The notes: generated by a model from the letters alone, not told the origin. A stretch of 63,943 nucleotides of DNA, filler included, from Collodictyon triciliatum (GCA_043381765.1; 9 parts of 9 records of this genome joined end to end with filler, not necessarily neighbours in it); one strand, 5' to 3'; numbered from the whole stretch's first letter, positions 8,361 to 16,184 are shown. Program-made: numbers and translations.

Positions 8361-11300
8361 AACCTGGGTGTACAAACATATATTACAGAAGTTGGAGTCT
8401 TTAGGGAATTCATTGGAATCTAAGGTATCTTTGGGTATATATCCTTGTTTCTATTTACACACGACTTCAATAGGCTCTCCTTTGGTCAAATGTCATATTT
8501 TTCCTCGAGATTGCTTCAGCTTTGCTGTTTATGATCAGCACCGATCCAAGTATTTATACGAAAGAGGGAAACTCTCAGCCATGGTTACTGTCTACATTCT
8601 TTTCTAATTTTTTTGTTGTTTGTTGTTTGATTTCTTTATTTGACATTTTGCTTGTGCTATCAGTCCAACGAAAGTAAATCGTCTGTAGGCTTGGTTTTGA
8701 GTACACTTCGGCTTTCTTTTTCAGTACATTATACCTTATTCGCTTACTGACCTCCTCAGATAGGATGCGATGGATTTTAGGTTTCTGTTTATTTGAGGGG
8801 GTTTTGGATATTGCGTGGTATTGTGAAGAATTGTGGATGCTTTTTTGAATACTCGATGTGATATTACTTTACTTTAGATTTTTCGAATGTAGTGGACATC
8901 ATCTCTCTAATTGCGATGTTTATGGGAATATACAATTTTAATGTAAGCAATACGTCATATTTAAAATATTTATTTTTATTTTATGGTATTTTACTTTATT
9001 CAATTTATTCTCTTTGGAGGGGGGCATATTACTATGTCTGAGATTATTTTAATAATTATCTCCTTTGTATTGGATTTTTAGGATAATGCTTGGCTGTCCC
9101 AACTAAAACTGATAAGATTGTTCAAACAGATTTCGCATATCCCTTTCAATGATGCTAAGAGAGCATCTGACGTATTATATAAATAACGCTCATGTGGCCA
9201 CCAAATCATGCAAAATATTTGATCTTTAATATTTTGAGGACTTCACTAAATTATTGTGGATGAAATGCCAATTTTTTTATTTTACTCAATTTTATTTGAA
9301 ACACTATTTGATTTACTTTTTTTTTTCAACAGATCATCAAAAACACTTTTGCGAAAAGCATTAAGTTGCTGATTGTCTATACTTTCACCCTTTTTACGGT
9401 TGTTAACATTTTTTCGGCGCTTATTTATCATATCGAGCGGGGTGCATGGAATGAGTACTATAAAGAATGGAAGATGAACAGAAACCTGAGGTTTTGCATT
9501 CCTATTTCTTATATATGTATATTTTTGGTTTATCAACAATTATTTATTTCAAAGCCAAAAATTCCATCATCCTGCACAAAATTGAAACGAAGAATTAAAA
9601 AAAAATCAACAATCATTTATTTCTCTCGCTGCACATTGAATCGAATAAAGGAAAAAAACAATCATTTATTACTACTCTTTATTGCATATTCTGATCTCTC
9701 CGCCAAATCATTCGCTTAGTCACTTCCAAAGTATTGCAGACACATACTACTGGTGCATAATTACAATCACTACTGTTGGATATGGTATGTGAAGAAATGT
9801 TTTTCATCGTCTTTCATACCTGATATTTTTTTGTCTGATATATTATATCCTTCAAGGCGATCTCCATCCGAGAACTTTATTAGGAAAATTGTTGGCTTCT
9901 GCAATGATCATATGCGGGATTGTGGTCTCTATCTTTTTCCATCGTCGTTTCCATTTGATTCAATCTTGTATAATAATTGGGTGGTAACTTACTGCTAATT
10001 TCCCTTGTTTTCTCACATTAAATTAGATGGCTAGTTTCCCCTTTGCTGTGGTAACTCACTTCTATAGGAAAGAAGTCCAGTTCGAAAGAACATTACCTGT
10101 AAAATAAATATCTTATTATATCACCCAACTAGTTCCATAAAGCCGATTTATATAATTATTCGTAAAATGTCTGGTAAATATCTTCATTTCCATATACTAT
10201 GGAAAGATTCTCAGATTCAAACTACACAGAACCCTGGGAATGAGAATGTGAATGCTCACCTCGTTGATGAAAAGCACGAGACAAGTCTGACAGAGGTAAT
10301 TATAAATTTTTAATGTTTCTGCTTTTCTCAACTTTGTTATAGTAGTATTAACGTGATACACAATTACACAGAAAACTCATCTCCTTGGTGGTGAAAGAAC
10401 GCTCCAAAACAAAATACGCGATTTATTCCATGAACCGTTCTCTTCTTTCTCTGTATTTTTTCGTTTGAAAAAAATCATATATTCGCTTTAAAAAAATATC
10501 AGCATGAAAACTGATAAAAAAATTTTTAAAAAAAGGCCAAGTTTCTCTATTGCATGAGAATTTTCTCAAGTATTGGGCTGCTGGTATTCTACTTTGTTGA
10601 GACTTTGCCAGAGTATTACAATGAGAGCACAGATAAACCCTGGTACTTACTATGTTTTATTCATCGGATTGAATCCACGGCATCTAAAGGTTATTTTTTA
10701 AGGTACACCTACGAGGTTGCATTTATTGCTTTATTTAGCATGGAATATCTAGTCGGCTTCTATACTGCCTCAAACCACAGAATTTATTTTTTAGGTTTGT
10801 GATATTTTCTATTTTTCCTTTATTCGATTCAAAGTTGTGAGATTTTCTATTAAATTATATATCGTAACGTAATGTCGATTATTTTTTTTTACCAATAGTA
10901 TATAGAGGATATATTTTTATTCAACCCGGACTTTATTTTGTGGACTCTTTATGCCGTGTTTCCCTAAATTCATCAAACAATTTCCTCAAAAATATAGATT
11001 TTTTAAATATCATCGATCTACTGAGTATATCGCCTTTCTATATGGAAATGCTGTTTGGTTCGGTTAGTATAATTTCCACGTAATGTTCTTATGTTATAAT
11101 CCGCCTCATGTGATTTTTTTCTTGAATTAGAGTATCGGAGGATATGCAGTATTTAGAAATATGAGGTTCTTATGGGGGTTTAGAATCATCAGAGTCCTCT
11201 CATTGAGTGTATTCGAAAAAAGAATTATGGTTAGAATAAATAAAGCAGGCTTAGATTAATAACATATTTGCCGAAAACATGAGGCATCCCTTTTTTTTTT

Positions 11301-14300: not shown

Positions 14301-16184
14301 ACATAAACTTCATTATTTATATGTTTCCCGACTTCGTTAGAATGAAGACGCATACACAGAGATTCCAGACGTTGAGGATGACCATTACTGTACACAAGGT
14401 GGAAAGAAACCCTCTTTTAGCATAGAAAATTCCTCTTCAAAAGGAAACTACACTACCCCAATTCGCCACCTATCAATGAAAGGATACACCAGGAAAATAT
14501 TAGAGAATCCTACACAATCTTCGGTTGGCTTTTCATAAAATATAAATATGTTTATAATGTACGTTTATGATGGGTAGTTTTCTTTTGAAATCGCAACACG
14601 CCGGGATATTCTGTAAATTTCTTTCATCTAATATTCATTTTGCTTAGGAAAAAATCGTGTATGGCTTTCTTGAGATATGTGCGATAGCGTCTGTGGTCGT
14701 GGCGATTATTTCGACCAACCCGAGGTATCAGGGTGATGACAAAACTGACCCGTTGTAAGATTCTGATTATTTAATTCAAATGTAGTGGTTTGGATGTATA
14801 TCTGCCAAACAAATGTAACTTTAGAAATCATATGGTTTAACCTTTCTCATATTCACAGCTTTACCCCTCAAGTTGTGTTCATAATCGTGGCCATACTAGA
14901 ATTGTTGGTTCGATTTTGGGTTGCTTCGTCTTACTTCACTTTTTTTAGTGAGTATTTAACGCTCAAAATATGGAATGCCCGGTCAATTCTCTTATTAGTA
15001 TGTTGAAATATAAACATCATAACCCCGATTAAATATAACTCACATCTCCGATGTATGGTAGCTATCGTCAACATATTTGAAGTCACGGCTTGTTTGGTCT
15101 TTTTCATCGACTTTGGAATTGATGGGGTGGATTCTACAAAAATACCAAATTATCAGTTTATTATGATCAGTATATATAACGATCCATATTTATATGTAAC
15201 CCCTTTCTTACTGATTGAATGTTAATTGATTATCACGTAGAGTTTTCAGGGTATTATCGCTTTGCGTTCGATCCGGTTTTTTCGAATTCTTGTTCTTTTC
15301 CCAGATAGCAGCTTTGCGAAGGCCTTTGTGGTAAGTCAATTACTCTTTCGATACCTTTTTGTAATATACTTTTCAATCCTTTGTATTTTGAAGGTATTTT
15401 GACGTACATTGAATATATGCCCTGTTTTTAAACCTTTAAATATAGTTCATTTGTTGAGTGTTGAATAATATGATTCCGATTTTTCGTAATATGTCATGGA
15501 ATTAGTGTCTCCTGGAAACCTTTTGGAATTCGCAGGATGTCATCTTGGTTTTCTCCTTTCTCCTCTTGGTGCAGGTAGTTGCCTCGTCCTCAATTATGTG
15601 GTATCTGGAACGAGGGGAATGGAAAGATGGCAGTTGGAGACACAGTGATGGGGGCCGAAGGTGAGTGGTCTAAGGATAATTAACAAATATGTGACTTTCC
15701 ATACCCGTTAATACATTTGGCTTCGTTATGAATTAAAGCCTCAATAAAGAAGATTTCTGACGAACTGTTTTATAAATTCGTAGAGGTTTTTTTTATTGTT
15801 GGTGCTTTTCTTTTCATTTTACTCAAATTGAATTGTCATTTATCTTTTTTATTTTGTTCGCTTGTTTGTTTCTTATTTATTTTTTTAGTCGATTCCAAAG
15901 TATTCCTGACGCGTTCTGGTGGGGTGTGATTACCATGACAACAGTCGGATACGGTAATTTAACAGTCTTCCTATCATCTGTACAGGATATATATATATAT
16001 ATATATATCAAGATATTTACTTTGAGAAAAAGGGAATATAATATGAAAAAAATACATGCTAGTTACATCAAAGTCGGTATATCATCCATTAATTTATTTC
16101 ATTTTTACTCTAACAGGTGATATGGTGCCGATATCTACGATGGGAAAATTTGTAGCAGGCTTCTCCATGGGGATTGCCCTTTTG
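8361..16184 (+). CDS. Four-repeat (4x6TM) voltage-gated-type potassium channel, Kv/Shaker-like repeats, partial at both ends
   Basis: Four S1-S6 units, each with a pore helix and filter: ITTVGYGD (9769), MTTVGYGD (11653), ITTVGYGD (13646), MTTVGYGD (15938). Each has an S4-like Arg/Lys helix and an ERG turret motif. Linker exons (10215-10295; 12126-12196 and 12296-12373; 14163-14198 and 14341-14523) join the repeats in frame with no stop. Confidence 0.9.
9608..9670 (+). mobile_element. Tiny retroposed insertion (non-LTR 3' end) with 14-bp TSD
   Basis: AACAATCATTTATT flanks TCTCTCGCTGCACATTGAATCGAATAAAGGAAAAA on both sides. Confidence 0.75.
10804..10851 (-). mobile_element. Tiny retroposed insertion with 10-bp TSD
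   Basis: ATTTTCTATT flanks the reverse complement of CTCACAACTTTGAATCGAATAAAGGAAA. Confidence 0.7.
12017..12092 (+). mobile_element. Tiny retroposed insertion with 16-bp TSD
   Basis: AAGTTCTGTCTATGCA flanks ATGACATACCCTCGCTACACTTTGAATCGAATAAAGG-poly(A). Confidence 0.8.
12969..13067 (+). repeat. (ATT)n intronic microsatellite; similar runs at ~50655-50750 and ~53011-53110
   Basis: Direct trinucleotide run. Confidence 0.95.

Follow-up and report, generated by a model that had tools for sequence, protein, structure and literature searches.

The question raised by a locus of the protist Collodictyon triciliatum (GCA_043381765.1) is whether a voltage-gated (Kv-type) K+ channel, normally formed by four separate chains that assemble through an N-terminal T1 (BTB_2) domain, can exist in nature as a single chain. 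The locus occupies positions 8361 to 16184 of the window, by which we mean the whole analysed stretch of 63,943 nucleotides (nt), and a first-pass annotation made from its sequence had read there four complete six-transmembrane (6-TM) units in a row. We think it likely that this piece of DNA holds most of one gene for a pseudo-tetrameric K+ channel of the voltage-gated type with 24 transmembrane segments, composed of four anciently diverged Shaker-like repeats that are connected by short cytoplasmic linkers, with neither a T1 domain nor one that binds cyclic nucleotides (CNBD) between them. The reading is carried by the exon structure, a continuous open frame, four TTVGYGD filters, and a transcript that is expressed and spliced, including an in-frame link between repeats III and IV. 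Whether all four repeats stand in one chain in C. triciliatum depends on the junction between repeats II and III.

The window is a string of roughly 8.1-kb pieces, some of them shorter, joined by spacers of the form N44-TTAATTAATTAA-N44 at 8155-8254, 16407-16506 and seven other places, so that adjacency in the window need not mean adjacency in the genome. The whole gene region lies inside one piece (8255-16406, + strand), which has a (CT)n run at its start and a (TTTTTACTC)n run at its end; as the piece is bounded by spacers on both sides, the 5' and 3' ends of the gene are both cut, just as had been claimed. We placed the exons by eye, from stop-to-stop frames and the sequence itself, and then checked them with a script. 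The features of the piece are as follows, the homologs mentioned being the proteins described further below.

8155..8254, no strand: spacer (N44, TTAATTAATTAA, N44) that closes the preceding piece and cuts the 5' end of the gene.
8361..8424, + strand: first exon seen, repeat I pre-S1, placed by AG/GT borders and frame; aligns to the homologs' pre-S1 segment.
8474..10098, + strand: repeat I, S1-S6; exons 8474-8583, 8689-8780, 8878-8942, 9082-9171, 9333-9490, 9720-9784, 9857-9924 and 10027-10098; TVGYG starts at 9772.
10215-10295 and 10372-10452, + strand: linker I-II, two 81-nt exons, GT-AG and in frame; starts IQTTQNPG...SLTE, and its end aligns to the homologs' conserved pre-S1 motif.
10536..12185, + strand: repeat II, S1-S6; exons 10536-10642, 10703-10794, 10998-11062, 11131-11229, 11326-11492, 11604-11668, 11754-11821, 11970-11997 and 12126-12185; TVGYG starts at 11656.
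12296..12373, + strand: linker II-III exon; acceptor 12296 is from RNA, and acceptor 12300, or donor 12196 with acceptor 12296, is in frame.
12494..14096, + strand: repeat III, S1-S6; exons 12494-12597, 12726-12817, 12903-12967, 13159-13248, 13346-13494, 13594-13661, 13735-13802 and 14013-14096; TVGYG starts at 13649.
14163..14198, + strand: linker III-IV, 36-nt mini-exon, in frame, from RNA contig junctions 14096|14163 and 14198|14341.
14341..14523, + strand: linker III-IV, main exon of 61 codons, from an RNA contig; without a Pfam match.
14648..16184, + strand: repeat IV, from S1 to midway through S6; exons 14648-14754, 14859-14947, 15062-15126, 15241-15330, 15506-15660, 15889-15953 and 16117-16184; TVGYG starts at 15941.
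16407..16506, no strand: spacer that closes the piece after the (TTTTTACTC)n microsatellite and cuts the 3' end of the gene.

All 38 modelled exons are preceded by AG and followed by GT, and together they amount to 3349 nt in a single open frame of 1116 codons; this frame being open under the standard code, a ciliate-type genetic code was rejected. A six-frame scan of the 63.9-kb window for T[VIT]G[YF]G returned four matches, all on the + strand and starting at 9772, 11656, 13649 and 15941, and once the exons are spliced each of the four repeats reads TTVGYGD. The earlier claim of four complete S1-S6 units stands for the four filters and for units I to III but not for repeat IV, which is incomplete, its last S6 exon and the C-terminus lying beyond the contig end. 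At the other end, the exon at 8361-8424 begins mid-codon, and at least one upstream exon must be missing. A tblastn search with the homologs found no more exons of the gene elsewhere in the window, and metagenome scans with the repeat IV S5 exon and a 28-nt exon pattern gave no contig that extends the gene, so that its ends were not recovered.

The repeats are four diverged 6-TM units of 229-270 residues, and their pairwise identity of 25-32% makes them old duplicates that still stand only 300-550 nt apart. Intron positions and phases are common to all four, a phase-1 intron splitting the G of GYG in every one of them, and the exon lengths recur from repeat to repeat (in nt, repeats I/II/III/IV):

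S1 exon: 110/107/104/107.
S2 exon: 92/92/92/89.
S3 exon: 65/65/65/65.
S4 exon: 90/99/90/90.
S5 exon: 158/167/149/155.
Pore exon: 65/65/68/65.
S6a exon: 68/68/68/68.

These recurring lengths imply that the unit already carried its introns before it was multiplied.

The introns hold some repetitive DNA of their own. A (TTA)n microsatellite at 12968-13068 occupies most of the S3-S4 intron of repeat III, and a short dispersed repeat (...TTGAATCGAATAAAGGAAAAAAA...) is found in two introns of the gene, at 9563-9602 and 12033-12078. In four sequencing runs the latter matched many contigs at 90-95% likeness, with very high depth and loose ends on both sides, and it looks MITE-like. Microsatellites also stand at the ends of several window pieces: (CT)n, (TTTTTACTC)n, (TAC)n and (CA)n.

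From each repeat's final S6 exon to the S1 exon of the following repeat, the DNA measures 437, 308 and 551 nt, and the linkers are about 20-75 residues long, the RNA-defined linker III-IV having 73 codons. Such intervals are too short for a C-linker plus a CNBD, the known size of which is the basis of this argument, and none of the five linker open reading frames (ORFs) had a Pfam match; the claim that the linkers leave no room for a CNBD is thereby upheld. Single exons are too short for Pfam, and among the channel exons (four S5 exons and an S1-S2 ORF) one of the five, the S5 exon of repeat I, reached Ion_trans (E 4e-4). There is likewise no room for a T1 between the repeats, and the N-terminus in the window is itself cut; PF02214 (BTB_2, the T1 domain) is absent from full-length homologs with a start methionine and present in the animal Kv matches.

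If such a chain exists, relatives of it should share its order of repeats. No relatives emerged from a word-based protein search with two single exons, those for S5 in repeats II and IV. A profile (A1) built from all four S5 exons was searched against 1.84 billion representative proteins and found 210 at E<=1e-3, the top seven with two to four matched stretches each. By cluster look-ups, most of these seven are Trinity ORFs of Diphylleia rotans (EukProt; Collodictyonidae, CRuMs). The proteins with four repeats are the following.

P0151, D. rotans: 1160 amino acids (aa), four GYG.
P0154, D. rotans: 1148 aa, four GYG.
P0157, D. rotans: 1169 aa, four GYG.
P0162, D. rotans: 1439 aa, four GYG.
P0200/P0202, D. 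rotans, one locus: 1167/1213 aa, four GYG.
P0004, from a 9.2-kb Logan contig of a GC-rich organism: 1748 aa, four GYG.

There are thus five four-repeat loci in D. rotans and, with P0004, six full-length four-repeat homologs. The first-pass annotation had proposed a search of protists for GYG-bearing proteins with four Ion_trans domains and, from an Ion_trans scan, had expected four hits in one protein and no cyclic-nucleotide-binding one. The five D. rotans loci and P0004 are what such a search brings up, and the expected pattern was seen in P0151, P0154, P0157, P0162 and P0004, in each of which Pfam reports four Ion_trans and four Ion_trans_2 domains and neither cNMP_binding nor BTB_2; cNMP_binding was also absent by Pfam from P0001-P0008. 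Repeats II and III lie within one ORF at all five D. rotans loci. The search further gave two-repeat proteins, namely P0007 (from Rigifila ramosa, CRuMs), P0006 and P0164 (from Gymnodinium smaydae). P0165 and P0193, two Logan-contig proteins some 1220 aa long, each contain four Ion_trans domains but no GYG and share 21-22% identity with P0151, and were set aside as another kind of four-domain channel. The ESM Atlas offered generic Ion_trans clusters only, taken as leads and nothing more.

An argument that the window gene belongs with these proteins comes from the position of each repeat. The proteins of the D. rotans loci are collinear with the window protein when aligned to it. In blastp, residues 22-1111 of the spliced model align collinearly with residues 60-1113 of P0151 (35.7% identity over 1103 positions, 698 bits), and the best off-register alignment scores 305 bits. 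The multiple alignment contains signatures specific to position: a two-Cys turret in repeat II, common to the window and D. rotans; FCYSS..DD in S1 of repeat III; and a charge-poor S4 containing FPD in repeat IV. In a careful tree of single repeats (39 rows), the window repeats group with the same-numbered repeats of D. rotans, with support of 95/95 for I, 90/83 for II, 100/99 for III and 100/100 for IV, the 95/95 clade joining window repeat I with repeat 1 of P0151/P0154. A quick tree of 68 rows agrees on this grouping; both trees omit redundant fragments of the same Trinity genes, and the careful one keeps nine of the 38 single-repeat rows of the quick one. The approximately unbiased (AU) test rejected a clade made up of the four window repeats (lnL difference 119, p 1.8e-07), the tested group having been named after the first tree was inspected. 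The per-repeat phylogeny that had been proposed thus pairs the repeats across species, and, because they appear orthologous by position, the four-repeat order is judged older than both the split between C. triciliatum and D. rotans and the D. rotans paralogs. For P0004 the trees do not sort the repeats by position, and P0006 and P0007, with two repeats each, lie outside the position-specific clades. On sequence grounds, the alignments and trees show the window gene to be a member of a four-repeat Kv-like family shared with D. rotans.

Which channels this family resembles depends on whether one looks at sequence or at fold. When the A1 profile was compared with the PDB, 44 of the 48 matches at E up to 10 were Kv1-4/Shaker chains. 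For P0151, the best 60 PDB matches listed are headed by 43 Kv1-4/Shaker chains (E 5e-42 to 2e-36), followed by 17 KCNQ chains at E about 4e-22 and weaker, and none of the 60 is a CNG or HCN chain. By sequence, then, the repeats are of the Shaker type. An AlphaFold2 model of P0151, built from a 51-row alignment (A2), has a mean pLDDT of 82.7 and a pTM of 0.81, and among the 50 Foldseek matches listed for it in the PDB, every one with a channel named in its title is a Nav, Cav or Nax alpha subunit. The alignments of the 50 run over 1233-1299 columns, with query-normalised TM scores of 0.57-0.66 and 13-16% identity; the structure prediction, a check suggested earlier, shows for the homolog a Nav/Cav-like fold. 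The voltage sensors are unequal: S4 carries 4, 4, 4 and 3 basic residues in window repeats I to IV; for the D. rotans proteins the counts are 4-6 (repeats I-III) and 3-4 (repeat IV). The low charge of S4 in repeat IV, common to the window and D. rotans, suggests that repeat IV is a weak sensor throughout the family.

RNA evidence came from assembled sequencing runs, the contigs of which keep the commoner path and drop rarer variants. None of the matching runs is listed as RNA, and the shares of sequence words they matched were only 0.10, 0.07 and 0.05. Run X1 contains spliced contigs with at least 12 GT-AG intron-skipping joints within the gene. Nine of the 12 listed match the prior model exactly (11997|12126, 12373|12494, 14523|14648, 14754|14859, 14947|15062, 15126|15241, 15330|15506, 15660|15889 and 15953|16117); all six internal junctions of repeat IV are among the X1 joints, and 15953|16117 was seen in run X5 as well. 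Two further X1 joints reveal the frame-keeping 36-nt exon 14163-14198, which was absent from the first model, and correct the exon set earlier given for linker III-IV. More importantly, a single X1 contig of 1187 nt starts in the S6 exon of repeat III and reaches that of repeat IV in one open frame, direct evidence that these two repeats share one mRNA in one frame. Elsewhere the cover is thinner. An X1 contig piece lies on the S5 exon of repeat III, and repeat I has some RNA contig depth in two bins spanning its S1/S2 and pore exons and introns, with no junction listed; the parts without cover provide no evidence either way. X1 differs from the window at two listed positions, T12325C and A14475G, both synonymous in the model frame. 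Runs X2 and X3 come from freshwater metagenomes and contributed a small number of unspliced 151-nt pieces with zero or one difference, the rest being matches to the intronic repeats; long joints in these runs that lack GT-AG look like repeat chimeras and were discarded.

Several observations weigh against a four-repeat chain, and the most serious concerns the splice between repeats II and III. A 260-nt X1 contig carries the joints 11997|12126, 12185|12296 and 12373|12494 in succession, and the middle one, the only II-III joint among the RNA joints listed, leads the frame of repeat II to a TAA at 12325-12327; the X1 allele has CAA there instead, which carries the frame of repeat II on to a stop at the TGA of 12367-12369. 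Since contigs keep the commoner path, it is probably this out-of-frame form, and not the four-repeat ORF, that prevails in X1. The first-pass annotation had claimed GT-AG linkers spliced in frame without a stop and had proposed to map the junctions in RNA: the exon borders, the nine matching joints and the in-frame III-IV link bear the claim out, but the II-III joint seen in RNA does not. Linker I-II and most of repeat II have no RNA cover, leaving the I-II link without RNA support, and both protein ends are missing from the gene model. The homologs have more charges in S4 than the window repeats do, and the window repeats sit on long branches (1.62-1.65 for repeat I). Among the relatives, Trinity ORFs may be chimeric, though five loci and the genomic locus agree, and the structure model is that of P0151 and not of the window protein, for which K+ selectivity, voltage gating and a pseudo-tetrameric fold are predicted properties.

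The most viable alternative takes the II-III contig at face value and has two chains of two repeats each, the first ORF ending just after repeat II and repeats III and IV being made separately, by reinitiation or from another transcript, from the in-frame ATG at 12347-12349 just ahead of S1 of repeat III. The RNA-seen joint would indeed give such a two-repeat product, and a frame that reaches repeat III is obtained only via acceptor 12300 (ATAG|AG, 4 nt downstream of 12296) or via donor 12196 with acceptor 12296: with acceptors 12296/12300 standing 4 nt apart and donors 12186/12197 standing 11 nt apart, two of the four combinations are in frame, and the one in the RNA is not among them. On the other hand, the repeat III frame upstream of its first methionine (SIKESIFYF...) aligns with the conserved pre-S1 segment of the homologs (LRERIFALFENPQSS in P0154, LKDRIFNTLSTPYYS in P0151), which argues for coding in this frame ahead of the ATG; an earlier ATG is not available in it, as it is closed by a TGA in exon 11970-11997. 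The T12325C difference points the same way, being a synonymous change from ATT to ATC in the repeat III frame and a stop loss in the other, and so does the presence of repeats II and III in one ORF at the five D. rotans loci. With an in-frame acceptor 4 nt away and an assembly that drops rarer variants, the absence of the productive joint from the contigs is less telling than it may seem. From the coding upstream of the methionine, the synonymous difference and the single-ORF homologs we read repeats II and III as joined, and consider two separate chains unlikely; these arguments are indirect, and the two-plus-two arrangement stays a live rival. Programmed +1 frameshifting at the TAA/TGA of the II-III overlap was also considered and set aside, as the homolog transcripts need none and the in-frame acceptor is so close.

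The same out-of-frame junction among the RNA joints listed, along with the long branches and the charge-poor S4 segments, would also be expected of a decaying, non-functional copy of a four-repeat channel gene. Yet 38 exons and 1116 codons are free of stops and frameshifts, no splice site and none of the four filters is damaged, the gene yields spliced transcripts, and both listed variants are synonymous, so that decay seems improbable to us. Four separate tandem Kv genes, each with its own 6-TM subunit, would account for the stop codons that read-through into the following intron soon meets behind each S6 exon, and for the in-frame methionines before S1 of repeats III and IV, but the idea is barely tenable given RNA contigs that span II-III and III-IV with their introns removed, the mere 308-551 nt between repeats with no N-terminus or T1 in them, the lack of a usable start past the acceptor of repeat II, and homologs that are single ORFs with repeats orthologous by position. 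Membership of a described four-repeat family, CNGK/tetraKCNG or Nav/Cav/NALCN, could be argued from the four 6-TM repeats in one chain and the homolog model that matches Nav/Cav over its whole length, and is just as hard to credit in view of the missing room for a CNBD in the window, the absence of cNMP_binding from the Pfam-scanned homologs, the GYG filters against the single-residue filters of Nav/Cav, the sequence matches to Kv1-4 and the 13-16% identity to Nav/Cav chains. Overall, the proposal of a pseudo-tetrameric K+ channel chain derived from Shaker-like units and lacking CNBDs draws support from four independent lines, namely the III-IV RNA contig, the D. rotans chains, the positional grouping and the Kv1-4 matches; we regard the finding as real and the earlier interpretation as essentially right, with the II-III splice as its main caveat.

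If the four repeats are indeed translated together, the single chain would fold into a pseudo-tetramer in which the four TTVGYGD pore loops line one K+-selective filter, as those of four Kv subunits do. Four unequal voltage-sensor domains would surround the pore in a Nav/Cav-like arrangement and gate it via long S4-S5 linkers. The covalent linkage would take the place of T1-driven tetramerisation and, at the same time, lock the four specialised repeats into their order. The functional mRNA would join repeats II and III by acceptor 12300 (or by donor 12196), and the 12185|12296 form would be an unproductive or alternative isoform. As for what the channel does, a role in repolarisation and in the control of flagellar or feeding behaviour of this freshwater phagotroph is a guess.

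Compared with known systems, the repeats are closest to the Shaker-type channels Kv1-4, with which they share the 6-TM plan with a pre-S1 motif, an S4 with Arg/Lys at every third residue, a long S4-S5 linker and TTVGYGD. They differ in that Kv channels are four chains assembled via T1, whereas the window gene has four different repeats and homologs without T1. Shaker-type Kv channels have a PVP motif in S6, of which the window repeats retain one proline. The Kv-like channels with two repeats in tandem are similar in concatenating Kv-like 6-TM repeats that lack a CNBD, have diverged by position and are unequal in S4 charge; they have two repeats, unlike the four of the window gene and its six full-length homologs. 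Nav, Cav and NALCN have filters and linkers of another kind, the filters of Nav/Cav being rings of single residues (DEKA, EEEE) and the linkers long and regulatory. They share with the present family the 24-TM single chain and four unequal voltage sensors, and the model of the homolog P0151 superposes on them over its full length (TM 0.57-0.66), in contrast to the window filters, TTVGYGD in all four repeats, and to the low identity of P0151.

CNGK/tetraKCNG is also similar in architecture, with four 6-TM repeats and GYG-type filters in one polypeptide, a likeness that for the window gene is subject to the caveat of the II-III junction. CNGK has a C-linker and a CNBD after every repeat, belongs to the CNBD-channel group and is taken as the four-repeat K+ channel in PMC7576140, in the main text of which Diphylleia, Collodictyon, Rigifila, Mantamonas and CRuMs are not mentioned. 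The window linkers of about 20-75 residues, without cNMP_binding, and the sequence affinity to Kv1-4 set the present gene apart from it. The searched passages of PMC5824947, on four-domain cation channels, mention neither GYG nor collodictyonid or CRuMs taxa. In the full-text literature, in a search that left subscription journals largely outside its scope, we came across no account of a Kv-like channel with four repeats and no CNBDs, and no natural four-repeat K+ channel in the literature searched other than CNGK, a member of the cyclic-nucleotide-gated group. The earlier statement that this is not a described family agrees with what the search returned; the family is present in public transcriptome data but apparently undescribed.

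With somewhat less confidence than we have in the gene itself, we favour the view that these proteins form an undescribed class of channels, found in collodictyonid-type protists and at least one GC-rich eukaryote, in which a 24-TM single chain arose from a Shaker-type unit independently of Nav/Cav and of CNGK, kept GYG in all four filters and acquired position-specific voltage sensors; in C. triciliatum, the choice between acceptors 4 nt apart may moreover switch between a four-repeat chain and two two-repeat halves.

The window has other content besides the channel. At 41335-46148 (+) there are very long open frames (870, 255 and 433 aa) of higher G+C (0.45-0.47), with repeated SibA-like Ig, Big_9 and cadherin-like domains and, in the last ORF, a hydrophobic stretch resembling a membrane anchor followed by a short tail; it looks, from its predicted domains, like a giant adhesion protein with few introns. 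The C-lobe of a protein kinase (PK_Tyr_Ser-Thr, E 1e-22) is found at 380-808 (+), an HMG box (E 2e-10) at 25741-26418 (+) and one tRNA gene at 50376-50447 (-).

A four-domain K+-selective state is often assumed between K+ channels and the Ca2+/Na+ channels. A natural Shaker-like concatemer, if true, would mean that the route from 6-TM to 24-TM behind the Ca2+/Na+ channels was taken again within the K+ channels, and would provide a living model of the postulated intermediate, a four-domain channel whose voltage sensors are asymmetric and whose filter is of the K+ type. Each voltage sensor and each pore loop could then have been tuned separately by evolution, a situation that is today mimicked by artificial concatemers. 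The gene also widens the known ion-channel repertoire of the little-studied CRuMs-type protists.

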